Below, one piece after another: positions 29,977 through 63,229 of a stretch of DNA of 64,000 nt (positions within the stretch are counted from its first letter, which is position 1; the number at the start of each line of letters is the position of its first letter). The stretch covers positions 1 through 64,000 of the IMG/VR virus record IMGVR_UViG_3300045998_000148; one strand, given 5' to 3'. The DNA is from a virus. Under the pieces are notes generated by a model. The model was not told the origin of the DNA. It made no database searches and saw nothing but the letters and a program-made list of their open reading frames with translations. The position numbers and the translations under genes are program-made.

Positions 29977-32352
29977 CTATCTGTAGAGTTTGCGAAGGTA
30001 ATTCAATACATCGGCATTCGCCATGTACGATCGGGTCGCATCGCCGACGCCATCGATCTCGTGAGCGCCCGTCTTCTGAGGAAAGACGCCGAAGCGATCG
30101 TTTGCGCCGATGAGCGACAGTTCCGCAAGTGGCGTCCCCGCTTCCGCCATGCCGAAAGTAGGCGTCGAGATCGTCGCGAGCCGAAATTGCTCCATGATCT
30201 TCTGTGCCTTGGGTACGCCGTGGGTCTTGACGAGGGATTGATAGAGGATGTCGTAGGACACCCGTGCCTTAATTCCGGCATCTTTAGAGGCGAGCATCGC
30301 AATACGGCGGTTCGGCCTCGATTCGATATTGTCGGAAAGGGCAAACAGGTTGGCCGCCAGTCGAATAGATTCGGGATCGACGGGTTCGGTATCGACGGCA
30401 CTCAGTCCCAAATTGCGGCGAATGGCAGCGCCAAACCCGTCAATCGAGATGTGCTTGAAACGCTCGTCCTTGCTAAATGCACTCGCTCCAAAGGGGGCGT
30501 CCGCTTCTTTAATGCCGAATTCGGAGGCGACGGAAAAAAACTTAGTCATCCCGCCTGCTAAATTGCCGCTCTTACTCGTCCTGCCCTTGAGCCGATCGCC
30601 TTCGGGAATGCCGTCGAGCAAGTCTTCGTCTTTCTCCCAAGTACCGCCCATCAAAAAAGTGAGGTTGTTCTGCTTTTCCTTCTTTATCGCGTCGAGCTTG
30701 GGCTTGTTCAGCTTGGCGGCCTCGGCGAGGGCGAGGTCTGCCGCATTTTTGACATTCTCCTGGTATTTCTTGTTGGCAGCGGCGTATTCCTTGGGGCTGA
30801 GTCCCGTTACCGTACTGCCCGCAAAGAGGCGGTAGCTGGCCTTGTCGCCGAGAGCCATTTCTTTTAACTGCCCGACGCGATCGAGGAACGTATTGAGCGA
30901 GGGGTTGTAGCGTTCGGTAGCCTCATCCAACTGCTTTTGCAGCGCATTGCTGCGGTTGGAGATGCGGCTGGAATAGTAATTTAAGCCCTCGCGCAACTTG
31001 TCGCGCACGTCTCGATTTTTGAGGTAATCTTCGGCCTCGCCGCCCATTACCGATGCGATCCACTGCGGCTTTCGTTTCGGCATCCAGCTAGCCGGATCTT
31101 TGGCGCTCGTAACGGTGCGGTCGTTGACGTTGCGCCAGATACTCGGCGTATCGGCCACGCCAAAGGTAGGACTGCCCAACCGCACGAGGTTGATGCGCTC
31201 GGTAATGCTGAGGCCGCCCGACGCGCTGCGATCGGCTTTTTTCATCCGCCCCAGTATCTCGATCGCCTCGTTGGAGATGTTGCCGCCGACGCCGTGGGCG
31301 ACGATATTTAAGGGCTTGTCGGGATAGCGGTTGCCATAGGCGTAGAGCTGCGCGGCCAGGTCGATAGCCGCATCGCTGCGACCCCGCACGATATTGTTCG
31401 TGATGTAGCCTTTAATCCGATTGTTTATCTGGTGCGCCAGGTGGAAGGGGTTGGGCTTGCCGTTGAGCCACTTAGCATTATGGGGAGAAAGGTCGGAATC
31501 CTCGTCCGGGTTTTTAAAAGCAACGACGTGATTGCGCTCGCCGAACCAATTTTCTTCTTCCGAATTGTCCGTATTTTGCAGCAGCATCTCCCGCAACCGA
31601 TCGCCTTTAGAATTCTGAGAGCCGCCGCCGCCAACGGCAAACAAGATATTTTCCTTGCTCGTCGTATCGACCTGCATTTGCTTGGCTCTTGTCAGGGCGA
31701 TGTCGGCAGACTCCTTGAAGCCGTCGCGATGTCGCGACTTGGCCTGCTCGTACTTGGCGGCAGTAAAGCCGATAATGCCCGCCGCCAACAGGATACCCGC
31801 TCGCTTGGGATTGGCAGAGACGATCTTCTGCAACTTAATTGCCAGCCGCAGATCTTTTGCCGCTCCCTTGGGCAGCGAACTCAAGACGGCAGTGCGTTCC
31901 TTGCGGCGGCGCTCTAAAGTCTTTCTAAAATTGCGCTCCTCTTCGGGATTGCTTTCGACTAATTTAATCTGCCGAATTAACTGATCTTTGGTAAGGTGAT
32001 TGGCGCGATAAATTTGTTTTCGCGAGGCGATCGACTGCAACTCGCGGATCGAACGGTCTTCGAGCTTGCTGCCGCCCGCCTTCACGCCTTCGGGCAGCTT
32101 GCGCCAGTAACCGCCGCCCTTTACGCTCGGATCTCTAACGTACACTTTATCGCCGCGCCGCAAAGCCGGACGGCTATCTTGGTGCGCGTTCCCTAGCGCC
32201 GTGCGACGGCGCGGGGTCGCACCGCTATCTTGGTGCGCGTTCCCTAGCGCCGTGCGACGGCGCGGGGTCGCACCGCTATCTTGGTGCGCCGCCGAGGGTT
32301 TCTGGGCAGTTGAGGGCTTTAGACTTGCTTGCATTGGCGCGATCGTGAACAT
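29977..32352 (-). CDS. GGYY-leader protein with Rho-N-like domain and two degenerate alpha/beta-hydrolase-like domains
   Basis: GDKVYVRDPSVKGGGYWRKLP leader; LEDRSIRELQSIASRKQIYRANHLTKDQLI (Rho_N-like); LNIVAHGVGG and LVRLGSPTFG (lipase elbow lacking Ser); second copy LATISTPTFG. Confidence 0.7.
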   Translation of the reverse strand: MFTIAPMQASLKPSTAQKPSAAHQDSGATPRRRTALGNAHQDSGATPRRRTALGNAHQDSRPALRRGDKVYVRDPSVKGGGYWRKLPEGVKAGGSKLEDRSIRELQSIASRKQIYRANHLTKDQLIRQIKLVESNPEEERNFRKTLERRRKERTAVLSSLPKGAAKDLRLAIKLQKIVSANPKRAGILLAAGIIGFTAAKYEQAKSRHRDGFKESADIALTRAKQMQVDTTSKENILFAVGGGGSQNSKGDRLREMLLQNTDNSEEENWFGERNHVVAFKNPDEDSDLSPHNAKWLNGKPNPFHLAHQINNRIKGYITNNIVRGRSDAAIDLAAQLYAYGNRYPDKPLNIVAHGVGGNISNEAIEILGRMKKADRSASGGLSITERINLVRLGSPTFGVADTPSIWRNVNDRTVTSAKDPASWMPKRKPQWIASVMGGEAEDYLKNRDVRDKLREGLNYYSSRISNRSNALQKQLDEATERYNPSLNTFLDRVGQLKEMALGDKASYRLFAGSTVTGLSPKEYAAANKKYQENVKNAADLALAEAAKLNKPKLDAIKKEKQNNLTFLMGGTWEKDEDLLDGIPEGDRLKGRTSKSGNLAGGMTKFFSVASEFGIKEADAPFGASAFSKDERFKHISIDGFGAAIRRNLGLSAVDTEPVDPESIRLAANLFALSDNIESRPNRRIAMLASKDAGIKARVSYDILYQSLVKTHGVPKAQKIMEQFRLATISTPTFGMAEAGTPLAELSLIGANDRFGVFPQKTGAHEIDGVGDATRSYMANADVLNYLRKLYR
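32173..32288. repeat. 51-bp hairpin element family A variant with swapped inner stem, x2.3
   Basis: Inner stem gcgccgt-gcg-acggcgc replaces ggcgagg-nnn-cctcgcc. Confidence 0.9.
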
Positions 32353-32824: not shown

Positions 32825-33377
32825 TTTCGGTCGCTCCCTCCTCCTTCACTGCCGACGGGTAGAATGCCTCCGCTCCGCCTTGCGACCCTCTTGGTGCGCT
32901 TTCCCCTGGCGAGGACGCCTCGCCGGGGTCGCACCGCTCTCTTGGTGCGCTTTCCCCTGGCGAGGAGATCTCGCCGGGGTCGCACCGCTCTCTTGGTGCG
33001 CTTTCCCCTGGCGAGGACGCCTCGCCGGGGTCGCACCGCTCAATCAAGAGGGCGATCGCCATTTTCAGGTGTTCTTCCGCACGCTTGCTTTCGCGATAGT
33101 ACGAGTCCGACTGAGATAGGAATTGCAGTCGAGTGAGACACGATTGCAGCACGTCCTCCAAGTACGCTCCATTGCGTGCGTTGCGGTCTAACTCGCCGCG
33201 CTGCCAGCTAATCGTAAAGCCGATGCCCGTCGAAACGCCGCCCACTGGAATGCCGCCTTCTTTCCAATTTGCGTTTAAATACCAGTCTTCGGTCAAGTTT
33301 CCGCGCATTTCCCGCGTAAAACAATAATCTAGCGAACTTTCCACGACTTTCAACTCCCGCTCAAGAATTTCGATCAA
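32814..33377 (-). CDS. Tad1-like (Acb2/Tad1 family) anti-defence sponge protein with a repeat insertion near the C-terminus
   Basis: ISWQRGELDRNARNGAYLEDVLQSCLTRLQFLSQS..YRESKRAEEHLKMAIALL aligns with the recalled Tad1 pattern FQxGP..NG..xEDL...RLxxFQ...REN.AI.KLEEA..WL; TTG start overlaps the upstream TGA. Confidence 0.65.
   Translation of the reverse strand: MIEILERELKVVESSLDYCFTREMRGNLTEDWYLNANWKEGGIPVGGVSTGIGFTISWQRGELDRNARNGAYLEDVLQSCLTRLQFLSQSDSYYRESKRAEEHLKMAIALLIERCDPGEASSPGESAPRERCDPGEISSPGESAPRERCDPGEASSPGESAPRGSQGGAEAFYPSAVKEEGATESGE
32888..33041. repeat. 51-bp hairpin element family A, x3 tandem
   Basis: cttggtgcgctttcccctggcgaggacgcctcgccggggtcgcaccgctct; period 51. Confidence 0.95.
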
Positions 33378-42600: not shown

Positions 42601-43663
42601 CGAACGCAGCCGCCAATTCTTTCAAAGTCGAATCAGTTGAGAGGTAAAAGCCCGCCGCATTGCGGTGGCCGCCGCCGCCAAAACGCAGGGCAATTTCGGA
42701 AACGTCCCAATTGCTGCCGTTTTTATCGGAGCGCAGCTCCCACTTGCCCTCCGCGTTGTAGCAGGCCACAAAAGGGGAGCCTGTATATTTTTTGTACAGC
42801 GCCCTGCAAATATCGGAAGCGAGATAATCGCGACCTTTCCCCGTCCTCACCGCAGGAATGGAAAAACGGTCAATTTTCACCCACTGCACCTCATTTTCGA
42901 CATATTGGCGGACGATCCTTGCATTTTCTTCTACGGCGCGTTTGCCTACAGGCTGCAAAAACCAAAACAGCTCTTGCTCGGTCATTTCGGCAAGGCGATC
43001 GAGGAGCGCAAAATTGAGGCCGAGCGCCCGCAGCGCTTCGTGAATCCACTTCGTTTCGGGGTATTTGAACTCGAAGAGGTCGCGATCTTTGATGAATTTG
43101 AGGATGGGGGGCTTCTCTTGGCCCACAAAAAAATAATTCCAGCAGGCCGTAGCACCCGACTCTTCTAAATCGAAAAAACAATCAGCCCTGTCGCCAATTT
43201 CTTTGAAAGCGCTTTTGTGGTGGTCGATGACGAGAAGGACGTTTACTTTAGACGCCAACAGATCGAGCTGATCTGGAGTAAAACTAAAATCGACCGCGTA
43301 CAGCTTGTCGATGTCGTCCGGCAAAGTGGCGCAAAAAGCTTGGCGGCGATCGTAGGTACAGGGTACGGCGATCGCGTCGGGATAGTATCGCCGGACGACC
43401 CAGGCAGAAGCTATGCCGTCGTGACAGGACGTATCCTCGCTAAGTTGATGGTAAACTGCCGCGATTTTTACCCTCGCCGAGGTCGCACCGCCGTCTTGGT
43501 GCGCGTTCCCTTGGCGAGGAAGCCTCGCCGGGGTCGCACCGCCGTCTTGGTGCGCGTTCCCTTGGCGAGGAAGCCTCGCCGGGGTCGCACCGCCGTCTTG
43601 GTGCGCGTTCCCTTGGCGAGGAAGCCTCGCCGGGGTCGCACCGCTACCTGTATCGCTTGCCAT
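42584..43663 (-). CDS. DHH/DHHA1 phosphoesterase
   Basis: CHDG, VDFSF, IDHH, ESGA, DRDL, GGGGHRNAAGF. Confidence 0.9.
   Translation of the reverse strand: MASDTGSGATPARLPRQGNAHQDGGATPARLPRQGNAHQDGGATPARLPRQGNAHQDGGATSARVKIAAVYHQLSEDTSCHDGIASAWVVRRYYPDAIAVPCTYDRRQAFCATLPDDIDKLYAVDFSFTPDQLDLLASKVNVLLVIDHHKSAFKEIGDRADCFFDLEESGATACWNYFFVGQEKPPILKFIKDRDLFEFKYPETKWIHEALRALGLNFALLDRLAEMTEQELFWFLQPVGKRAVEENARIVRQYVENEVQWVKIDRFSIPAVRTGKGRDYLASDICRALYKKYTGSPFVACYNAEGKWELRSDKNGSNWDVSEIALRFGGGGHRNAAGFYLSTDSTLKELAAAFDAKKN
43472..43645. repeat. 51-bp hairpin element family A, x3.4 tandem
   Basis: Same unit, in the DHH gene N-terminus. Confidence 0.95.
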
Positions 43664-50386: not shown

Positions 50387-50847
50387 TCTCTTGGTGCGCT
50401 TTCCCCTGGCGAGGACGCCTCGCCGGGTTCGCACCGCTCTCTTGGTGCGCTTTCCCCTGGCGAGGACGCCTCGCCGGGTTCGCACCGCTCTCTTGGTGCG
50501 CTTTCCCTTGGCACGATACCTTGCTCCTGCAAGAAAGCAGCAATTTTAGCGGAAGCATCCGCGTGGCCGCAGGCAACCAGGCAGATATAGCCGCTTTGTT
50601 CGAGCAGCCGGATAAATTGCTGCTCTTGCGTCGAAAGTTCGCTCTTGCGGTAGCGCGACTGGACGGTAAGGAACAGCCGCCACTCGGGAACGAACAGGTC
50701 GGGCAGGGAAGAGAGCGAACCGAGCGCCTTGAGCCGCCTTATACTCTCGCCGCTAAAGGCGTGCGGTCGAGGCAGGGCGCAGATCAGCTCCGCAAAATTT
50801 TGGCGGAACCACTCGACCGTCAATTTCTGCTCGTGATACCTGCTCAA
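50371..50847 (-). CDS. VRR-NUC-like protein with degenerate catalytic motif
   Basis: LPDLFVPEWRLFLTVQ (canonical PDL...FIEMK), LSTQEQQFIRLLEQSGY. Confidence 0.65.
   Translation of the reverse strand: MSRYHEQKLTVEWFRQNFAELICALPRPHAFSGESIRRLKALGSLSSLPDLFVPEWRLFLTVQSRYRKSELSTQEQQFIRLLEQSGYICLVACGHADASAKIAAFLQEQGIVPRESAPRERCEPGEASSPGESAPRERCEPGEASSPGESAPRDQANS
50388..50512. repeat. 51-bp hairpin element family A, x2.4 tandem
   Basis: Same unit, in the VRR-NUC C-terminus. Confidence 0.95.
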
Positions 50848-54039: not shown

Positions 54040-54843
54040 ATGCCAACCAGCAAGACAAGCATCGAGATGAACGGCGAATCAGTAGCAACCAATTGTTCTC
54101 TGGTCTTCAACTACGGGGGCGGTCGGCAAACCGTGGCAATGTGCATCATGATAGCGAAGGGTGTCTTGCCAAAACCCAATGTTGTCGTAATGGCTGACAC
54201 TAGCAGAGAAAACCCGATGACATGGGATTACCTTGAAAAGTACACGCAGCCGATGATGACTGAGCTTGGTTGTCCAGTGGAAATTGCTAGGCATGAGCTT
54301 GCAAAAGTGGATCTTTATGCGAACAACGGCAACTTGTTGCTCCCAGTCTATACAAAGGATGGCAAGCTTCCGACGTTTTGCTCCACTGAGTGGAAGAAGC
54401 GTGTTGTGCGAAGGCATCTGCGTGCAAGCGGACACAGTGGCGGAACGCAATGGTTGGGACTGGCGATGGATGAAAAGCGAAGATGGAAGAAACACCACGG
54501 GAAAGTTGAAGGCAAGTGGCTTACCGTTTGTCCGCTTGTTGATTTAATGATTAACACAGATGCCTGCCTGAGCGTCATTAAGTCGTTCGGTTGGCCGGAA
54601 CCGCACCAGTCAGCTTGTTGGATGTGCCCCCATAAGAAGAATGCAGAGTGGCGTGAAATCAGAGACAACCATCCTGCTGAGTGGAAGCGGGCTGTGGAGC
54701 TTGATAAAAAGATTCGAGCTTCCGATGACCACGGCGGCGTGTTTTTGCATCGCGATCGTGTGCCACTGGATCAAGCCAACTTGGACGCGGAAGAGACTCC
54801 CGAGCTAGTGCGGCAGTGCAGTCTCGGTATGTGTTTCGTGTGA
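54040..54843 (+). CDS. PAPS-reductase/PP-loop (adenine nucleotide alpha-hydrolase) family protein
   Basis: NYGGGRQT, ADTSREN..T, CSTEWK, SACWMCP, C-terminal CSLGMCF. Confidence 0.8.
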   Translation: MPTSKTSIEMNGESVATNCSLVFNYGGGRQTVAMCIMIAKGVLPKPNVVVMADTSRENPMTWDYLEKYTQPMMTELGCPVEIARHELAKVDLYANNGNLLLPVYTKDGKLPTFCSTEWKKRVVRRHLRASGHSGGTQWLGLAMDEKRRWKKHHGKVEGKWLTVCPLVDLMINTDACLSVIKSFGWPEPHQSACWMCPHKKNAEWREIRDNHPAEWKRAVELDKKIRASDDHGGVFLHRDRVPLDQANLDAEETPELVRQCSLGMCFV

Positions 54844-54892
54844 CCTAACCTAGATTCAAAGAACCAGTCATTGGAAAACTGCTAATAGCGAA

Positions 54893-55591
54893 ATGCCGAC
54901 CAGCAAGACAAGCATCGAGTGGACAGACAAGACTTGGAATCCGACGACGGGCTGCAACAAAGTTAGTCCGGGCTGCCAGTATTGCTACGCCGAAGCACTG
55001 GCCGAAAGATTTCCCAAAAGTTTCACGCAGGGGTTCAAGTTGACCCTGCACCCCGAGCGGATAGAGCAGCCAAAAAAATGGCGCAAACCCAGCCGCATTT
55101 TCGTGAATTCTATGAGCGATTTGTTTCACGAAGATCTGCCTTTTTCCTACTTGCAGGAGATTTTCGCGGTAATGCAAGATACGCCGCAGCATACCTATCA
55201 AATCCTGACCAAGCGCGATCGGAACTTGGCAAAATTAGCGCCCCTGCTTGAATGGCCTGAAAATATTTGGGCGGGCGTATCGGTAGAAAGCCAGTCTTAT
55301 GTCTACCGGATCGATGCCTTGAGAGAAGTTCCCGCAAGAGTACGATTCCTTTCCTGCGAGCCTTTGTTGAGTCCGCTCGCCCTAAATTTGAAAAAAATTG
55401 ACTGGGTGATCGTTGGCGGCGAATCTGGATACCGACATCGCCCCATAGAGCCGGAATGGGTGAGGGACATCTTGCGCCAAACGAGAGAAGCAAAGGCGGC
55501 CTTCTTTTTCAAACAGTGGGGCGGACGCCACTCGAAGGCGGGAGGCCGGACATTGGACGATCGCGTGTGGGACGAGATGCCATCAGTGTAA
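54893..55591 (+). CDS. Phage Gp37/Gp68 (DUF5131) radical-SAM-like protein
   Basis: IEWTDKTWNPTTGCNKVSPGCQYCYA, FVNSMSDLFH, WVIVGGESG, FFKQWGG. Confidence 0.93.
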   Translation: MPTSKTSIEWTDKTWNPTTGCNKVSPGCQYCYAEALAERFPKSFTQGFKLTLHPERIEQPKKWRKPSRIFVNSMSDLFHEDLPFSYLQEIFAVMQDTPQHTYQILTKRDRNLAKLAPLLEWPENIWAGVSVESQSYVYRIDALREVPARVRFLSCEPLLSPLALNLKKIDWVIVGGESGYRHRPIEPEWVRDILRQTREAKAAFFFKQWGGRHSKAGGRTLDDRVWDEMPSV

Positions 55592-56550
55592 TGAGCGGGG
55601 CTGAAAGGGCTAAGCGATGCCGGGGAAAAAACGGAATGCAAAGAATTAAGCCGTTATTCAGCTATTATGGGGGCAAGCGGCGTCTAGCAACGCGCATTGC
55701 AGCGGAATGCTGGAAAATCCCCCATTCAGTCTACACGGAGCCATTCGCGGGCGGTTGTGCCGTGTTGTTTGCCAAGGGATTGCCTGCCATCTCTAACAGC
55801 GATCATTACCGAGAAGCAATCAACGATCGCGACAGTCGGATCGCTAACATTTACTGGGTTGCGAGACATCACCCAGACGAACTAGAAAGGCGATTGCAAC
55901 TGACGCCTTACAGTCAGGAATGCTATCGGGAGGCAGTGCAACTATGCAAAGAAGGCAGCGACGACCGCATTGAGATGGCATGGGCTGCGATCGTCAATTT
56001 AGAGATGTCGTTTGCAAACAAGATGAATGGAGGATGGGGAACCAATGTTTGTAGCGAGAATCGTGCTGCAACATGGGCAGCAAAGCGAACAAGCCTGACA
56101 TTTGCTATGAAAAGGCTTGATCGAGTCTATCTTGGCAATGAAGACGCACTGCGTTTTATTGAGAGATGGGATTCGCCCCAAAGCTTGCACTATACAGATC
56201 CTCCATACCCTAACACCGAACAAGGACATTACAGTGGCTATACTCTGGACGACTGGCAAGCCTTGTGCAACTTGCTAGACGACATTAATGGCAGCTACAT
56301 TCTTAGTAACTATTTCCAACCTATTGAGCCAAAATCGGCACAGCAACGGATTGAGATTAGCGTAAATTGTTCTAGCAGCGGAGCTGGCATGGTTGGCAAG
56401 AACAGGGACAAATCGCGAGCTGCCACTGCTGAGGAATTAGGCGATCGCTCTCGGACTGAGGTTTTGTGGATTTGCGATCGCTCCCACAAAATCAGGAAAG
56501 AACTTTACGCCGTCACTCAGAACAAGCACAAGCAACTCAAATTGCTTTAG
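55591..56550 (+). CDS. D12-class N6-adenine DNA methyltransferase (Dam-like)
   Basis: YYGGK, YTEPFAGG, IND, YTDPPY; start either ATG 55591 (TAATG coupling) or 55636. Confidence 0.9.
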   Translation: MSGAERAKRCRGKNGMQRIKPLFSYYGGKRRLATRIAAECWKIPHSVYTEPFAGGCAVLFAKGLPAISNSDHYREAINDRDSRIANIYWVARHHPDELERRLQLTPYSQECYREAVQLCKEGSDDRIEMAWAAIVNLEMSFANKMNGGWGTNVCSENRAATWAAKRTSLTFAMKRLDRVYLGNEDALRFIERWDSPQSLHYTDPPYPNTEQGHYSGYTLDDWQALCNLLDDINGSYILSNYFQPIEPKSAQQRIEISVNCSSSGAGMVGKNRDKSRAATAEELGDRSRTEVLWICDRSHKIRKELYAVTQNKHKQLKLL

Positions 56551-56608
56551 CGCCATCGGTGCAGTAATGCCGCAACATCAAACCGCAAAACCGTTTAACC
56601 CTTAATAC

Positions 56609-56703
56609 CTTTGCCAGAAAAACCATAACTTTGCCAGAGGAAGCATAACTTTGCCAAAGGAACCATAAAACTTCCAAAACGGCAAAATTATGGTTCCTTT
56701 GGC
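56609..56703. repeat. 20-bp tandem repeats x3 plus one inverted copy
   Basis: ctttgccagaaaaaccataa / ctttgccagaggaagcataa / ctttgccaaaggaaccataa; perfect 16-bp inverted repeat 56653-56668 vs 56688-56703. Confidence 0.85.
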
Positions 56704-56719
56704 TGTCCCCGCACCCCGC

Positions 56720-56752
56720 AAAAAAAACCGATCGAATCTCGGCGACGATCGG
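56720..56752 (-). terminator. Intrinsic terminator of the cas8-like operon
   Basis: ccgatcg...cgatcgg stem followed by 8 U on the minus strand. Confidence 0.7.
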
Positions 56753-56782
56753 CATACTCTCAAACGATTTAATTTCTACATT

Positions 56783-57790
56783 TTAAACTTCTAGCGCAAG
56801 CATTTTTCTCAGCCCTTTCTTTTCAGCCACAAGCGAGTCAAATTCCAAGTCTGCAAACCCTTCGTACCACTCCGACCCCTTTGCCAGGTTTGCGACGATC
56901 GCGCCTCGGAGGGGGTTTGCCGAAACAAAACGCCTGCCTTCACTGTCGCTACCGCCCTTGTTTGGAAACATTTCCCGAATCCGTTCATAATCGGCAATAT
57001 AGTCTTCCGTTGGGTGGGCTGTCTTCGCATCGACGATCGACGCAACGCGGTTGCTCGACCTCGAATAGAACTGATAGCCGTGGACGTACTGCTTATTGCG
57101 ATCGCAGTAATCCGCACAGGCATCAATCAGGTTTGCCGCGACAAATCGATCGGCATCACAAGGCTTATTGAATTTGATCGTCTCCAGGCTGACTATATCT
57201 GGACAAATCAGGCCGTAGCTGTATCTTCGCTTGTGTCCGAACTTTTCCTGAATTTGATAGAAACCCCAGGTTAGAGGAGAAAACAAGCTAGCGATCGCAT
57301 TTTCAAACGACAACCGAATTCCGCTACTGGAATTGGGAATCGCAGTAGACTTCAGCGTAACCCCCTTCGCTCTCGCTTGAAACTTCAACTTTTTAGCAAA
57401 ACCTTGATGGACGAACGACTTCAAAAACAACGTATTGAAAGCGATTTCTCCAAAAGGGGATTCGAGGGCGATCGCTTCAGGGTACAGCATGGGACGCGAG
57501 GCGGGCGATTGCAGTAAAGTCTCCAGCATCCCGATATGCGTTGTCAAATTACAACCAGGCAAAGAGATGATCCCGCCAGAGAGCCGGAAAGTCTGTCGAA
57601 ACAGAAAATCCCAGGCTTCCACAAAATCGCCATCCCAAGAAACCTCAATTTTGGTTCGGTCTTTCTGCCACTGAAAGACAGATTGCTCTTTAGGCAGAGA
57701 TTCGAGGGCAAAGGCCAACCCCGCAATCCCGGCAGAAATATGACAGTCGCCAATAGAATGCGACAAAACATCAAAAGTCAATGAATTCAT
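56783..57790 (-). CDS. cas8: Orphan Cas8 homolog (type I-B MYXAN Cas8a1/Cmx1-like), 335 aa
   Basis: HISAGIAGLAFAL (recalled pattern HRAGIAGLALAL), W...I.VSWDG, FLFRQTFRL.GG.I.LPG, TLLQ, ASLFSPL, LICPDI..L, NPLRGAIVANLAKG.EWYEGF; ATGA coupling. Confidence 0.7.
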   Translation of the reverse strand: MNSLTFDVLSHSIGDCHISAGIAGLAFALESLPKEQSVFQWQKDRTKIEVSWDGDFVEAWDFLFRQTFRLSGGIISLPGCNLTTHIGMLETLLQSPASRPMLYPEAIALESPFGEIAFNTLFLKSFVHQGFAKKLKFQARAKGVTLKSTAIPNSSSGIRLSFENAIASLFSPLTWGFYQIQEKFGHKRRYSYGLICPDIVSLETIKFNKPCDADRFVAANLIDACADYCDRNKQYVHGYQFYSRSSNRVASIVDAKTAHPTEDYIADYERIREMFPNKGGSDSEGRRFVSANPLRGAIVANLAKGSEWYEGFADLEFDSLVAEKKGLRKMLALEV

Positions 57791-58167
57791 GCTGCTACCG
57801 CCTCCACTTCCCGACTCTCCCGCAAAAGCTCGGAAAAATCCGGCATATTCGACAGCCCGCTTTTTTTCCAGGCAAACTGCCGGTTGTTTCCCATCACCCA
57901 ATAGAGGCCATTCGTCAAAAAAACGGCGGCATAGGGATAGCCATCGTCTTCCGGGCATCCAGCCGCCGCCCGTAATTCCTTGCCAAAATCGTAGGGCGAT
58001 TCAAATTCTGTACTGACCACCTCCTCGAAAATGAATTTGTCGAGCTGCGCCGGAAAGTGCGCGTTAATCCACCGATTGTCGGCGATCGCAATCCCCAACT
58101 TTTGCACGAAATCCAAATAAGCCGTGGCGTTTGCCTTAGCATCAGACTTATAAACGTAAACGGTCAT
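57787..58167 (-). CDS. Small hypothetical protein (candidate anti-CRISPR)
   Basis: 126 aa, RBS aaggag, coupled to the cas8-like gene. Confidence 0.65.
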   Translation of the reverse strand: MTVYVYKSDAKANATAYLDFVQKLGIAIADNRWINAHFPAQLDKFIFEEVVSTEFESPYDFGKELRAAAGCPEDDGYPYAAVFLTNGLYWVMGNNRQFAWKKSGLSNMPDFSELLRESREVEAVAA

Positions 58168-58214
58168 TGCCTTACTCCTTTTTTTTCGTTTTTGCCGACA
58201 GGTCGAGATGGCTC

Positions 58215-58730
58215 CTAAATTTGCGCTGCGATGTTCCGTACTTCTGACGGCTTGGTGAGACTTTCTGGAACTTCCAGACTGGAGGAACTATCCCCCAGCT
58301 TGAAAACCCGCTCGACTTCCCTCAGCGTCTCTTCGCCACAAGTGGGACGCTTCCAAAACCGCTCAGTAGCATCGATCGCAGCCATCGCCTCCAAAGAATT
58401 GAAGTTTGCAAGCTTTTCCAGCAGCTCGTGACGATCTGCACCCCACTTCGCATCCAACCCGTTCTCCTCGATCGCCGATTCGACCGAAAGCAACAGCGCC
58501 GCATCTGGCGACAGACAGGGATCGAAAAATTCCCCATTGAGGGCATCGCAAAGCAGCAGGGCTTCATTGCGATTGAGCGACAATTTTTTAAGCGATCGAT
58601 CGACCAAGGCATAATACCTCGCGAGATCTGACTGCGCCTGAACTCCCAAGGAAGCGCCCCACTTGACGCGATCGCTCAAGTTTTCTTGGAGCGCCTTGTT
58701 TAGACGGAAAGAGACACTGGGACTGGGCAT
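58215..58730 (-). CDS. Putative RHH-like DNA-binding regulator
   Basis: N-terminal SVSFRLNKALQENLSDR (strand-helix); RBS aaggag; first gene after the promoter. Confidence 0.55.
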   Translation of the reverse strand: MPSPSVSFRLNKALQENLSDRVKWGASLGVQAQSDLARYYALVDRSLKKLSLNRNEALLLCDALNGEFFDPCLSPDAALLLSVESAIEENGLDAKWGADRHELLEKLANFNSLEAMAAIDATERFWKRPTCGEETLREVERVFKLGDSSSSLEVPESLTKPSEVRNIAAQI

Positions 58731-58754
58731 TACGGACTCCTTTTCTTTTGCTCC

Positions 58755-58783
58755 ACTGTATTCCAACTGCCCACAGTTGTCAA
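58755..58783 (-). promoter_or_regulatory. Sigma70-type promoter TTGACA-17-TACAGT with palindromic operator CAACTG-N4-CAGTTG
   Basis: -35 at 58783-58778, -10 at 58760-58755; inverted repeat at 58764-58779. Confidence 0.8.
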
Positions 58784-58850
58784 CGCCTGCCTACAGCTAT
58801 CTTTGTCCTGCTGATTTTGCAGCGCGATCGCCCCCGCTTCCGCCAGGGAT

Positions 58851-59053
58851 TTATTGTCTACTTACCGACTTTATTATCTATTTACCGACTTTATTATCTA
58901 TTTACCGACTTTATTATCTATTATTTGCCGAATTACCTACTTACCGACTTTATTATCTATTTACCGACTTTATTATCTATTTGCCGAAGTATTTATTTAC
59001 TGACTTTATTACCTACTTGCCAACTTTATTATCTATTTACCGACTTTATTATC
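58851..59053. repeat. AT-rich 20-bp tandem array (tttaccgactttattatcta) x~10, some copies degenerate
   Basis: Seen directly; no intervening spacers. Confidence 0.92.
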
Positions 59054-59074
59054 TTGCGTTTTTCAAAGAAAGCG

Positions 59075-60229
59075 CTAGTCGTTGAAAACTTCAGCAGGGT
59101 CGAGATATTCGAGTTCCGCCTGAATCTCCGAAATATCGCGTTCCTCGTGGGCGTGGGGGAATCCATTCTCGTCGAAACGATCGTCGCGTTCGGATTCGAC
59201 GATCGAGGGCAGGATATCGTTAGGGAGAAAAGAAGCGCCCGCCCCAGCGCGAATGCAATCGCGATCGATCTGATCGATCATCAGCTCGAAGACCTTATTC
59301 AACCCGATCGCTTCGAGGAAATTGCGCTTGGCGACCTCATTAGAGTCGTTATTCTGCCGGATCGCGTAGGCCAATTTACTAAGATGTCCCATCATCGCCC
59401 CGGTCTTGCTGAGCGTTTCGTTAGAAATTTCACCCTGACTCAACTGCGTCATCCAGACAGGCTCGATCGTCTCGTCGTACTTAACCTGCGGCAACAGGGT
59501 AGACAGGATGCCCTGAAAGCTCTCGTTCATCTGGCGGAGCCGCTTCCACTGCTCGATAAAAGCCTCGTAGAACTCTTCCAATTCCCGAATATAGGAGCGC
59601 TGCCTGTAGATACTCTCCCAAATCGGAACGTGCGACTCCATCCACTGCTTGAAAAACCGACCTCGATAAGCCCAAAAATAATTTTCGTACCACCGCACCG
59701 TTGTCCTGAGATGGCTCTCGACCTTGGCAGAAATATCGACCTCCAAATCGCAATTATAAAAAGCAATGTCATTTTTTACCTGCTTCAAGAACTCGATCGC
59801 GACGTATTTATAGCGCGGCATATTTTCGGGCAGCCGCTTGTAAAAACTAAAACAGTAAATCTTAAACGCCCGATACGCCGCCGCCGATTCGGTCGGATAG
59901 GGCGGAATGGGGAACTCGGCAAAAACAATTGACTTGTAATCCGAACGTGCAACGGCACGGGCGAGATTCCGATCGCCTGCAATGAAGCGAAGGGGATGCT
60001 CCTCCGGCAGCCCGCCGCCTGCACTATCGAGGTCGCCCGTATCGAGGCGATCCAAGACGCCTTCGTGGTGAAAGCCCAAATCCTCCGGCGATATCTGTAG
60101 GATATCCCGCCGCCGCGCACTGCCCTTTACTGCCCGTTCGCCGCCCTTCGCCTTGCGCCCTGCCGACTTCTCTTGCGAAGCAGGCGCTCCCGACCCCTCG
60201 CCGTATTCTTGCCGCCTAGATCGAGGCAT
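59075..60229 (-). CDS. Hypothetical protein, possible terminase small subunit
   Basis: PTESAAAYRAFKIYC resembles the ESxxAYxAF motif of some small terminases; coiled-coil C-terminal half. Confidence 0.4.
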   Translation of the reverse strand: MPRSRRQEYGEGSGAPASQEKSAGRKAKGGERAVKGSARRRDILQISPEDLGFHHEGVLDRLDTGDLDSAGGGLPEEHPLRFIAGDRNLARAVARSDYKSIVFAEFPIPPYPTESAAAYRAFKIYCFSFYKRLPENMPRYKYVAIEFLKQVKNDIAFYNCDLEVDISAKVESHLRTTVRWYENYFWAYRGRFFKQWMESHVPIWESIYRQRSYIRELEEFYEAFIEQWKRLRQMNESFQGILSTLLPQVKYDETIEPVWMTQLSQGEISNETLSKTGAMMGHLSKLAYAIRQNNDSNEVAKRNFLEAIGLNKVFELMIDQIDRDCIRAGAGASFLPNDILPSIVESERDDRFDENGFPHAHEERDISEIQAELEYLDPAEVFND

Positions 60230-60854: not shown

Positions 60855-60890
60855 GTTTCCATTCAATTGGTATCCCCCCGAAGGGGAATT
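60855..60890 (-). CRISPR. Solitary CRISPR repeat unit (cyanobacterial type III-B-like); no array
   Basis: Minus strand AATTCCCCTTCGGGGGGATACCAATTGAATGGAAAC: a 5' hairpin plus the AATTGAxTGGAAAC tail of the cyanobacterial III-B repeat family. Confidence 0.6.
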
Positions 60891-61027
60891 TCAAAGTAGC
60901 CAACTATCAAGAGATCGACCGACGAAATCGAGGTATTTGGAGACTTTGACAACTTATGCAGCCCGTGTAGTAGCCGAATAAGCCGGAGCCGATAAGCTTT
61001 AGCCGAGGAGCTTCAGCAAATCTAAAA

Positions 61028-63229
61028 ATGATAGTAGCCGATAAGTTTACACCCTGTCAAGACATTGCCCTGCCGACCGATCGGACAGTGCGACTGCACG
61101 GCGGCATCCTGGCAGCAGGCGGCCCATATCTAAAGCTGTGGTACGCCCTGCGCTGGCTCGACACCAAAGGCAGCGGACGCCTCACCCTCCCCGCCAAGGC
61201 GATCGCCGACCTCTGCGGGCTATCGACCAAGACGCTGTACCGCCACCTACGCGAAGGCCGCGCCGTAGGAGCATTCCTGCGCTATCGCCTCAAGAAAGGC
61301 GTCCTGACCGTAGAAATGGGCAGCAGGGCGCGGCTGACGGTTCACCTCGGCATCGAAGACTGGGGCAACACCGCCAGCTACCCCATCGACGAATTTTTAA
61401 CAAATTTTTACACGATCGCGGCGACTCGCCTCACCGCCGCCGTCAAGCAAAAACAGGCTTACCATGCTGCCTGCCAGCAGCACGTTAAGGGAGTCGTGCC
61501 GCCAGAAAGCGCGATCGCGATGGCAAGAGAGCGGTGCGAACCCGGCGAGGTTTCCAAGTCCCCGACTGTCGAGGTTTCCTCGACAGCTCGTGCGGGACGC
61601 TCGCCAGGGGAAAGCGCACCAAGAGAAAGCCATGCGGAATCGGCGAAAACGGAAGACCTGCTCAGTACGAGCAAATCCCCCAGTAGCGAAGCAAACTCGC
61701 TTATAAAAATACGCTGTGAGAACGGGGATCAGCGGGTCGCGCACCATTTTCTCGACGTCCGCTTGCAAGAGTTCGATGGCGCTGAAGATATCTCAACGCA
61801 TCGAGACGACAGATCACCTCTATACCCGCGAAAGATAATAACGCCAGAACTTGTCAGTTTTCCCGATTGCGCGGAAAATACGGTCGATGACAGGCTCTCA
61901 TCCCAAGCGAATATCCCCCCTATCCATAGAGAGGAGTCTATGGAAAACGCCATTACCACGGCGTCAGTCTGGGGTTTTTTATTTGGAAAAAAGCGATTCT
62001 CAATAAGAGGAAAATCTTGTTTTTTTGCAAATGGAGCGGTACAAAGGCCGCCTGCAATTTTTTTCATTTCCAAAAAGAAAATCTTCGTTACGGGCAGTGC
62101 AAAGATCGCCGCTACTTCGCAAGAAAGTATCGCCGAGGCAATCGGGCGCTCAAAAAAAACGGTAAACAGGCACTTGAAGGCGGTTTTCAAGCGTCAGTAT
62201 TGCCAATCAAACCCGAAAGTATTTTCACAAATTCAGCGCCAAACTCGCACCGGAGAAACCTTCTACGACCCGGAAATCCTGGCTGAAATGACCCCAAACG
62301 GCGAAAAAGTAGCGCACTTGCGCGAAAAGATAGTACGTCGGGCGAGGTTGGAGAAGGGGCGCTGTTTCCAGTTCGAGGGCGAATTGGGCAGGGTTTTGGG
62401 CGATCGCAATGCTTTTATCAATAGACAGAGCATTTACGACCTACCCTATATCGTCCACAGCACGAGGACGGCAAAGCGGTACTTCCGGCGGAAATTCAAT
62501 GTTTCTGCCGTAGAAGGCTACAGTAACGACTTTAGGCTCAATCCCGAGCGCGATCGCCTCTGCCGCAGCAACCCCTTCCGAAGGGGTATCCCCTACCGGG
62601 GGATGTACGAGCATCACTTCGAGGCTTGCCAAACCCTTAAAGGAAGCGATGTTTCGGGAATTGCGACTGCCGAACTCGCTTCCGCCGAACTCGTTTCTGC
62701 CGCCCCGCCCGCAAAACCCGTCTCGCCTGCAAGAGGGGCAAAAGCCGCGATCGACACTCTCATCGCGGACACCGAGAGCGCCTTACAGGGGCTTCCTGAT
62801 TCAAAAGGTACTAACGCCTTGGCCGCAGCGAGGGAGGCGGTAAGGGCGGCATTCTACCGCTCGCAGGATGGCGATCGCGATTCCTTTAAAGCCCTCATCG
62901 AAGGGCGAATCGCCCTGCACTATTTCGACCTGACCGAAGGCGATCGCCAGCCCTTAATCGAAGCCCTGCTCGAAATTATTGCCGATTTCACGGCGAGGAC
63001 GGCGCTATTTCTCGCTCTAGCTCCCGAATGCTATGAACTATCGCCGAGCAGCGCGACCAATTTTGGACTGTGGGAAACTGAAGGTGTAGAGGGATGCGAT
63101 CGCTTACTCAATTCAATCGATTTTATTAATTTTTTTGAATATTTAATTTCGATTGGATTTTGTTTTGGGAAAGAGCTTGAAGTGCTGGCTTCCGCCGCTT
63201 GGAACTGGGGGAGCCGCAGCCTATCGTAA
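61028..63229 (+). CDS. Large HTH-containing protein, putative replication initiator
   Basis: Two HTH-like motifs (AKAIADLCGLSTKTLYRHL; SQESIAEAIGRSKKTVNRHL); the start may be GTG 61088. Confidence 0.55.
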   Translation: MIVADKFTPCQDIALPTDRTVRLHGGILAAGGPYLKLWYALRWLDTKGSGRLTLPAKAIADLCGLSTKTLYRHLREGRAVGAFLRYRLKKGVLTVEMGSRARLTVHLGIEDWGNTASYPIDEFLTNFYTIAATRLTAAVKQKQAYHAACQQHVKGVVPPESAIAMARERCEPGEVSKSPTVEVSSTARAGRSPGESAPRESHAESAKTEDLLSTSKSPSSEANSLIKIRCENGDQRVAHHFLDVRLQEFDGAEDISTHRDDRSPLYPRKIITPELVSFPDCAENTVDDRLSSQANIPPIHREESMENAITTASVWGFLFGKKRFSIRGKSCFFANGAVQRPPAIFFISKKKIFVTGSAKIAATSQESIAEAIGRSKKTVNRHLKAVFKRQYCQSNPKVFSQIQRQTRTGETFYDPEILAEMTPNGEKVAHLREKIVRRARLEKGRCFQFEGELGRVLGDRNAFINRQSIYDLPYIVHSTRTAKRYFRRKFNVSAVEGYSNDFRLNPERDRLCRSNPFRRGIPYRGMYEHHFEACQTLKGSDVSGIATAELASAELVSAAPPAKPVSPARGAKAAIDTLIADTESALQGLPDSKGTNALAAAREAVRAAFYRSQDGDRDSFKALIEGRIALHYFDLTEGDRQPLIEALLEIIADFTARTALFLALAPECYELSPSSATNFGLWETEGVEGCDRLLNSIDFINFFEYLISIGFCFGKELEVLASAAWNWGSRSLS
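61031..61060 (-). promoter_or_regulatory. Leftward promoter TTGACA-18-TACTAT pointing at the solitary repeat
   Basis: -35 at 61060-61055, -10 at 61036-61031. Confidence 0.6.
61524..61626. repeat. Family A element (reverse orientation) with a nested family B hairpin
   Basis: caagagagcggtgcgaacccggcgagg[...gactgtcgaggtttcctcgacagctcgtgcgggacg]ctcgccaggggaaagcgcaccaagaga. Confidence 0.85.

Follow-up and report, generated by a model that had tools for sequence, protein, structure and literature searches.

An orphan Cas8a1/Cmx1 N-terminal domain encoded behind an AcrIE10-like leader gene: a candidate decoy anti-CRISPR operon in a presumed cyanophage

The window analysed here comprises the first 64 kb (64,000 nucleotides, nt) of a single linear virus record of IMG/VR (IMGVR_UViG_3300045998_000148; 99,877 bp). 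Its minus strand carries a compact operon of three genes, the last of which encodes a homologue of the N-terminal domain of Cas8a1/Cmx1, the large subunit of one branch ('MYXAN') of the type I-B CRISPR effector complex, Cascade. This protein of 335 amino acids (aa), P0001, is encoded together with an acidic protein, P0002, and a leader gene product, P0003, whose modelled fold resembles that of the anti-CRISPR (Acr) protein AcrIE10. We propose that the operon may supply a decoy large subunit directed against the Cascade of a cyanobacterial host.

Operon layout and control signals

The operon lies entirely on the minus strand, where a promoter is followed by the genes for P0003, P0002 and P0001 and by a terminator. 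It is located between packaging/DNA-modification genes and putative regulatory genes, away from the contig ends, and has a GC content of 0.48-0.49, compared with ~0.55 in its flanks. The first gene (58215..58730) encodes the 171-aa P0003, a candidate autorepressor that is possibly itself an Acr; its ATG is preceded at 7 nt by GGAG, and one homologue opens with the identical residues MPSP. The second gene (57787..58167) encodes the 126-aa P0002, an acidic ORFan and candidate further Acr or accessory protein, and is preceded by a strong ribosome-binding site, AAGGAG. The third gene (56783..57790) encodes P0001, a candidate decoy large subunit consisting of the Cas8a1/Cmx1 N-terminal domain only, and is joined to the P0002 gene by an ATGA overlap. 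Good ribosome-binding sites are found in front of all three genes. A longer frame of 391 aa was considered as the third gene and rejected, since the relatives of P0001 begin at the same methionine.

The best-scoring promoter-like site of the region is a sigma-70-type promoter, TTGACA-17-TACAGT (58755..58783, minus strand), in which TTGACA (58783-58778) and TACAGT (58760-58755) are separated by a 17-nt spacer. It scores 10 out of 12 and ranks first among the 9 promoter-like sites in 56400-59200 (shuffles, 2.5 ± 1.5). A perfect palindrome, CAACTG-N4-CAGTTG (58764..58779), covers the last 2 nt of the -35 element plus most of the spacer; it is present in a single copy in the window and is a candidate operator for P0003 as the ribbon-helix-helix (RHH)-type protein of the operon. 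At the distal end of the operon, a terminator scan together with the sequence itself identified an intrinsic terminator (56720..56752, minus strand), consisting of a 7-bp stem (CCGATCG/CGATCGG), an 11-nt loop and a T8 tract and beginning 31 nt past the P0001 stop codon; the scan as such reported the inner 5-bp version. The promoter with its overlapping palindrome, the three-gene layout with a coupled 335-aa last gene, and the terminator had all been put forward in a preliminary description of this DNA, and each was recovered at the positions given here.

Two dissimilar arrays of 20-bp repeats, iteron-like or protein-binding-array-like in appearance, flank the operon. Directly upstream of the promoter, Tandem Repeats Finder detected ~10.5 AT-rich 20-bp tandem repeats with the plus-strand consensus TTTATTATCTATTTACCGAC (58850..59054), an array that resembles those preceding the promoters of the ardA-containing cassette array of the same phage (see below). 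Between the operon terminator and a convergent Dam methylase gene lie three direct 20-bp repeats, ATAACTTTGCCAGAGGAACC, and one inverted copy (56605..56703).

The Cas8 homologue and its clade

Profile searches placed P0001 in the Cas8a1/Cmx1 family. It matches NCBIfam TIGR03485 (cas_csx13_N; Cas8a1/Cmx1) with an E-value of 5.6e-13 and 48.3 bits, though below the cut-off of that family; on the same profile the relatives of its clade score 35-48 bits and a true Cas8a1 343 bits. The PADLOC Cas8b profile is matched with an E-value of 3e-14, and P0001 and its two close relatives have a precomputed Pfam label, PF27372, in common (label only). These two proteins (62% and 46% identity) are the only close relatives among 5.8 billion proteins. 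A profile search against 1.84 billion cluster representatives returned 96 matches, the best eleven of which are 330-420 aa long, while the remainder are mostly canonical Cas8a1 proteins of 500-570 aa; the viral structures of BFVD contained no match. A metagenome scan for related loci yielded two canonical I-MYXAN loci and nothing else. One of these, L005, is a complete cas6-cas3-cas8a1(N+C)-cas7-cas5-cas4/cas1 locus, to whose Cas8 residues 1-331 of P0001 align with 23% identity (tblastn, E 3e-20).

Structural comparison gave a consistent picture. The AF2 model of P0001, built from a 56-row alignment, has a predicted local distance difference test score (pLDDT) of 95 and a predicted template modelling score (pTM) of 0.93. 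Foldseek aligned it to the Cas8 chain of the type I-B CRISPR-associated transposase (CAST) Cascade, PDB 8fcj_I, with an E-value of 3e-20 and a query-normalised template modelling (TM) score of 0.84. With VIA, the same chain was found at Z 31.9 (root-mean-square deviation, rmsd, 2.5 Å; 327 residues aligned; 19% identity), the model residues 1-335 being superposed onto residues 6-397 of 534; runners-up were the Synechocystis I-B Cas8b (Z ~17) and a I-A Cas8a (Z 8.9). A profile of the P0001 clade likewise matches 8fcj_I with an E-value of 2e-43 over chain residues 24-402 of 534. P0001 is genuinely homologous to the Cas8a1/Cmx1 N-terminal domain, though highly divergent from it.

The protein stops at the equivalent of residue ~397-402 of the 534 residues of 8fcj_I. 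The Cas11 chain of the same solved complex corresponds to profile positions 370-488, that is the last ~120, and these positions are missing from P0001, which is therefore a whole large-subunit N-terminal domain and nothing more. The profile of the C-terminal domain, TIGR03486 (csx13_C), had zero matches at E ≤ 10 when the entire record was searched in six frames. The core profiles of Cas7/DevR, Cas5/DevS, Cas6/Cmx6 and Cas3 likewise had zero matches in six frames of the 99,877-bp record at this threshold, and no CRISPR array was seen in a tandem-repeat scan. The P0001 gene is an orphan throughout the 99.9-kb record. The Cas8a1/Cmx1 motifs, the absent C-terminal Cas11-like part and, for the window, the lack of cas5, cas7, cas6, cas3 or an array had been noted from the sequence beforehand; all three points hold, the last one now for the entire record.

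To place P0001 among its homologues, a quick IQ-TREE search was run on the N-terminal-domain columns of 56 proteins, with support from the SH-like approximate likelihood ratio test (SH-aLRT) and no bootstrap. A branch with 99% SH-aLRT support parts 14 proteins without a C-terminal domain from 42 canonical ones. The former consist of 13 short proteins and one with an N-terminal extension, the C-terminal domain being missing in all of them; the few short rows on the canonical side look like contig-end fragments. Because the 14 domain-less proteins fall together behind this branch, the loss of the C-terminal domain is old and inherited and not a recent break.

Members of this clade differ in what, if anything, takes the place of the lost domain. 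Five of them, P0001 itself, P0011, P0012, P0014 and P0015, end at the N-terminal domain. Another five (P0004, P0006, P0007, P0009 and P0010) have a conserved basic tail of ~60 residues with the pattern W-K-x-K/R-T-G-F-E ... G-Y-x-A-G-Y ... W-G-x-G-Y, and in P0013 and P0017 the Cas11-like domain is replaced by an HNH_3 nuclease tail (Pfam E 1.5e-6 and 2.1e-7, respectively). P0001 is without the basic tail, which its two closest relatives do have. The same tail also ends two truncated Cas8c/Csd1 proteins, P0030 and P0100, which match the Cas_Csd1 profile over positions ~15-460 of 559, and it is found on two small stand-alone proteins, P0027 and P0052. The P0030 tail shows a weak similarity to ribosome modulation factor (RMF; E 8.8e-4, under the cut-off), and an Atlas search with the small tail protein P0027 gave just weak viral hypothetical clusters (score 0.80). 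Judged from these alignments, two unrelated large-subunit families appear to have been truncated at the same point and to have acquired one common appendage.

We also evaluated whether P0001 fits a Cas5 partner. The Cas5 of L005 was used as a stand-in I-MYXAN partner, not being that of the host, and was co-folded with P0001, the latter with its alignment. The pair scored 0.76 (median of three runs), compared with 0.00 for the best of 3 controls, a mark that is reached by 58 of 80 solved complexes and by 2 of 110 mismatched pairs; between runs, at least 2% of contacts are in agreement, and the partner pLDDT is 81 or higher. Since Cas8-Cas5 complexes have already been solved, this result shows a likeness of the modelled pair to those complexes, P0001 keeping a Cas8-like fit to Cas5 in the model, and is no proof of binding. 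The predicted Cas5-contact residues have a clade conservation of 0.487 versus 0.541 elsewhere (permutation P = 0.95), which is uninformative either way.

The leader gene, the virus and its counter-defence genes

P0003 has four metagenomic homologues with 35-41% identity. Its AF2 model (pLDDT 77) shows a short N-terminal segment, helices at residues 12-21 and 28-47 as is typical of RHH proteins, a short-helix bundle that reaches residue 142 and, last, a disordered tail. The top Foldseek match of this model is AcrIE10 (probability 0.98; target-normalised TM 0.68). In a wide VIA search of 48,161 chains, AcrIE10 (8ji9_D) was again the best match, at Z 8.9 (rmsd 3.0; 112 of 114 residues; 21% identity; model residues 2-124), the next best reaching Z 4.6. 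No short N-terminal strand was called in the monomer model, as expected if the strand forms only in the dimer; an arginine in the putative strand is conserved in 4 of 5 homologues. The charge of P0003 is split, with an isoelectric point (pI) of 10.0 for residues 1-50 and of 4.4 for residues 54-142. As far as the model goes, P0003 is structurally AcrIE10-like, in agreement with the preliminary description, which had called the first gene RHH-like. The idea that P0003 is a hidden Cas11 was rejected: its VIA score to 8fcj_J is Z 3.7, tied with dozens of unrelated helical proteins. P0002 is acidic (pI 4.7); a search of 5.8 billion clusters returned no homologue of it, it matches no family, and the Atlas offered nothing usable.

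The record is viral by gene content, with genes for a large terminase (PHROG 979, E 1.7e-35), for an M15/GH19 lysin and for RusA, and its completeness was estimated at 88% by CheckV. The HIP1 octamer GCGATCGC occurs 164 times across the 99.9 kb, against 1.5 copies expected. Such an excess is a cyanobacterial signature inside a virus genome, and because of it the host of the phage is almost certainly a cyanobacterium. Near-identical DNA is present in two sediment metagenome runs from two studies, one of them perhaps the sample of origin, with no RNA run among the sequencing runs containing near-identical sequence; the contigs of these two DNA runs are short pieces, none of which bridges the record. 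The INPHARED phage collection contained neither a DNA nor a protein match, and related-locus searches of viral contigs and genome contigs gave zero relatives.

Several neighbouring genes point to other forms of defence evasion. To the left of the operon (54040-56550, plus strand) lie a gene for a protein with a PAPS-reductase fold (PADLOC SspD, 7e-11; PHROG 424), a DUF5131 gene (Pfam 7e-95; PADLOC PDC-M41B, 1e-106) and a D12-class adenine (Dam) methylase gene, a cluster that probably serves DNA modification or anti-restriction and protects the phage genome. The two genes upstream of the operon on the same strand (384 and 174 aa) have no Pfam, PHROG, PADLOC or NCBIfam match. Beyond these two genes, upstream of the Cas8 operon by 2 kb and not part of it, a solitary CRISPR-repeat-like unit occupies 60855-60891, likewise on the minus strand; it contains a CCCC-TTCG-GGGG hairpin, ends in AATTGAATGGAAAC and is preceded by a promoter of its own, TTGACA-18-TACTAT (~61022-61050, minus strand). 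It matches Rfam CRISPR-DR58 with 28.3 bits (E 0.031), below the gathering score of 38, and its last 14 nt are identical to those of the Microcystis repeat DR3, which has been listed beside subtype III-B genes (PMC4428289). Solitary repeats are known RNA anti-CRISPRs (Racrs), and in viral sequences their enrichment in the vicinity of acr genes has been reported (PMC10651486); by analogy, the unit is a possible candidate RNA anti-CRISPR.

An ArdA gene (L001:8434-9063; Pfam E 1.8e-28) is found 14 kb from the operon, as cargo of a small-gene cassette array at L001:6000-11900 (record positions 70000-75900). Each cassette combines a HIP1 hairpin and T-tract with an array of 13-bp tandem repeats (GCTACAGATCGCC) and with a TTGAC-N17-TATAAT promoter whose spacer holds the inverted repeat ATACCGAT-N3-ATCGGTAT. 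The layout of the Cas8 operon matches that of these ardA-type cassettes, while the sequences differ. Taking together the methylases, the SspD-like/DUF5131 pair, ArdA and the solitary repeat-like unit, the phage evidently invests heavily in counter-defence.

Two further features of the window are recorded here. A 733-aa protein (61028-63229, plus strand) contains two helix-turn-helix motifs (residues ~53-76 and 363-390) and no other recognisable domain; encoded divergently from the leftward gene cluster, it is possibly a regulator or replication initiator of the region. A GC-rich, hairpin-forming unit of 51 bp occurs in short tandem arrays in at least four places, partly inside reading frames (32173-32289, 32888-33041, 43472-43644 and 50387-50512).

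A candidate decoy operon and its known counterparts

In type I-B complexes, the N-terminal domain of Cas8 reads the protospacer adjacent motif (PAM) together with Cas5, while its C-terminal domain is identical to Cas11 and forms a belly with three Cas11 copies; this belly supports the non-target strand when the R-loop is full, and Cas3 recruitment depends on that full R-loop (PMC11096372). Against this background, and by analogy with known Cas-derived inhibitors, we favour, at slightly better than an even chance, the reading that the operon is a cyanophage anti-CRISPR operon with a Cas8 decoy subunit, aimed at a type I-B (Cas8a1/Cmx1, 'MYXAN') Cascade of the host. After an early burst of expression, the basic RHH module of P0003 would bind the palindrome and shut the operon in the manner of an anti-CRISPR-associated (Aca) regulator, while the acidic helical domain of P0003 may, like AcrIE10, bind to Cas7. 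P0001 would compete with the Cas8 of the host for the position adjoining Cas5 and the 5' handle of the CRISPR RNA (crRNA). Cascades bearing P0001, and hence devoid of a covalently attached belly domain, would then fail at R-loop completion or at Cas3 recruitment, the outcome being a dominant-negative Cascade. P0002, which is translationally coupled to P0001, could be a further Acr or a helper. The finer claims, an altered PAM on the one hand and blocked Cas3 recruitment on the other, are inferences.

A Cas8-decoy reading had already been offered in the preliminary description. Those of its elements that can be assessed in silico held, and the AcrIE10 fold and the Cas5 co-fold have been added to them; the palindrome, on the other hand, is not significant when taken alone. 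As 7% of the 29-bp windows in the record overlap some perfect 6-bp inverted repeat, it is weak evidence by itself and counts only jointly with the nature of the first gene. Other observations weigh against the decoy reading as well. The 48.3 bits of P0001 are under the curated TIGR03485 cut-off of 80.85, and the nearest true Cas8a1 proteins are only ~23-25% identical to it, so that no cognate target can be named. Sequence similarity between P0003 and AcrIE10 is non-significant (profile E 0.95; nothing with phmmer), the fold being the sole link. The operon partners are not conserved, P0002 having no homologue and no P0003 homologue coming from a contig that reaches the length of those of P0001's two closest relatives. 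HNH or RMF-like tails in some clade members hint at more than a passive decoy, and ~12% of the phage genome is estimated by CheckV to be absent from the record.

The same tails also enter into the alternative that survives best, a rather improbable one, namely that P0001 is an exapted protein of Cas8 fold whose job is unrelated to host CRISPR, for example a DNA- or RNA-binding module in phage regulation, replication or inter-element conflict. Relatives with HNH or basic RMF-like tails would suit such a role, as would the 20-bp repeat arrays flanking the operon, which could be the targets of the protein. The age of the clade, its ~23% identity to working Cas8 and the lack of special conservation at the predicted Cas5-contact residues are in keeping with it too. 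However, by occurring on likewise truncated Cas8c proteins, the basic tail ties this architecture to the large subunits of Cascade; P0001 co-folded with Cas5 outscores its controls; and the leader of the operon is AcrIE10-like.

We consider it unlikely that P0001 enters and re-tools the host Cascade instead of poisoning it, so that the complex binds DNA without recruiting Cas3, or reads another PAM, with host crRNAs or a guide-like RNA of the phage serving silencing or inter-element conflict. The N-terminal domain is complete, including its Cas5-pairing region, and the division of labour between an N-terminal domain that reads the PAM with Cas5 and a C-terminal domain that supports the R-loop with Cas11 (PMC11096372) would permit such a hijack. 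The closest solved relative, moreover, is the Cas8 of a nuclease-free CAST Cascade, and the repeat-like unit with its own promoter 2 kb upstream on the same strand might furnish a guide. Yet this unit resembles III-B-associated cyanobacterial repeats and not those of I-B, falls below the Rfam gathering threshold and has no second clear repeat or spacer established beside it, while the AcrIE10-like neighbour points to inhibition. Very unlikely, finally, is a decaying remnant of a phage-borne CRISPR-Cas system or CAST, or a piece of a complete system located in the unassembled 12%: cyanobacterial phages and Tn7-like elements do carry type I-B modules (PMC9881144), and the record is linear and 88% complete, but the frame is intact, the fold very confident, and promoter, ribosome-binding sites and terminator are the operon's own; the C-terminal domain is missing from the whole clade, there is no other cas or Tn7 signal in the 99.9 kb, and the gene is not at a contig end but between packaging/DNA-modification and putative regulatory genes.

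A broader form of the decoy reading is more tentative, and we regard it as possible but rather doubtful. Cas8 proteins without a C-terminal domain may form an old and recurrent class of Cascade-poisoning proteins on mobile elements with at least two origins, one in Cas8a1/Cmx1 and one in Cas8c/Csd1, the Cas11-like domain being replaced by the same ~60-residue basic RMF-like tail in members of both and by HNH in others. In the present phage, the decoy would then be one part of a multi-pronged anti-CRISPR island, along with a remote relative of AcrIE10 and the type III-B-like solitary repeat.

Anti-CRISPRs acting on cyanobacterial CRISPR are, to our knowledge, essentially uncharted, and we know of none for the Cas8a1/Cmx1 branch of type I-B. 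This branch also powers type I-B CRISPR-associated transposases that are used as genome-insertion tools. Cas-derived decoy Acrs, a catalogue of orphan viral cas genes and RHH-type Acr-Aca control have already been published. What appears to be new is a predicted large-subunit mimic made of the N-terminal domain only, the converse of AcrIB4; the origin of this mimic from Cas8a1/Cmx1 and its occurrence in a cyanophage; the apparent use of a remote AcrIE10 relative as operon leader, as judged from its model; and, at the level of the family, the single tail shared by Cas8a1 and Cas8c proteins without a C-terminal domain. This common tail on truncated members of both suggests a wider, so far overlooked family.

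Three known systems bear comparison with the elements of this locus other than P0001's decoy role. The solitary unit is similar to Racrs in being a lone repeat-like unit with its own promoter, but is III-B-like and below the Rfam threshold. With the Cas8 of the type I-B CAST Cascade (8fcj_I), P0001 shares the fold of the N-terminal domain near residue-for-residue and the family motifs; it differs in that this domain is ~50 residues shorter, in its loops, and in having no C-terminal helical Cas11-like domain, and its locus, unlike a CAST, contains no partner cas genes and no transposon genes.

The third system, AcrIE10, originates from Klebsiella plasmids (PDB 8ji9, 9m71 and 9m7t) and is an experimentally shown bifunctional Acr-Aca, whose RHH domain binds to an inverted repeat that lies over the -35/-10 of its own promoter and whose helix bundle lodges in Cas7's crRNA groove and keeps the backbone from assembling (PMC13530269, PMC11317147). 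P0003 resembles it in combining an N-terminal RHH-type module with a bundle of short helices, in its basic N-terminal and acidic C-terminal parts, and in the placement of its gene, downstream of a promoter whose RNA polymerase site is overlain by an inverted repeat. It differs by ~30 extra disordered C-terminal residues and by a spacer of 4 bp in the inverted repeat at its promoter, compared with the 2 bp needed by AcrIE10. Moreover, AcrIE10 targets type I-E, whereas the host of P0003 would be a cyanobacterium, presumably with a I-B Cascade. With the match to AcrIE10, what had been an RHH-like gene next to a palindrome becomes a specific parallel that can be tested. If this match is genuine, the only known RHH-type Acr-Aca, which comes from enterobacterial plasmids, would gain a cyanophage counterpart in the AcrIE10-like leader, and this leader would constitute a new marker for acr loci.

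For P0001 as a decoy, the closest counterparts are AcrIB3 and AcrIB4 of Listeria, proven Cas-derived Acrs that stem from Cas5 and Cas8b, respectively (Katz et al., bioRxiv 10.1101/2023.06.24.545427). Both join Cascade and leave it defective, and both form clades of their own; the same study lists 358 orphan viral cas genes in IMG/VR, I-B cas8 matches included, with no entry under the names csx13, cmx1 or cas8a1 in its supplementary tables (10.1101/2023.06.24.545427). Like these two proteins, P0001 is a homologue of a Cascade subunit, has its gene on a mobile element remote from cas operons and arrays, and belongs to a clade of its own. Unlike AcrIB4, it derives from the Cas8a1/Cmx1 lineage, occurs in a cyanophage setting and is known here from sequence and models. 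Most strikingly, AcrIB4 corresponds to the last 90 residues of Cas8b, in the C-terminal domain, while P0001 is the opposite half, the N-terminal domain only. If the decoy reading is correct, P0001 would be the mirror image of AcrIB4, and the two would together offer a clean test of the contribution of each half of Cas8 to complex assembly, PAM reading and the recruitment of Cas3 or TniQ.

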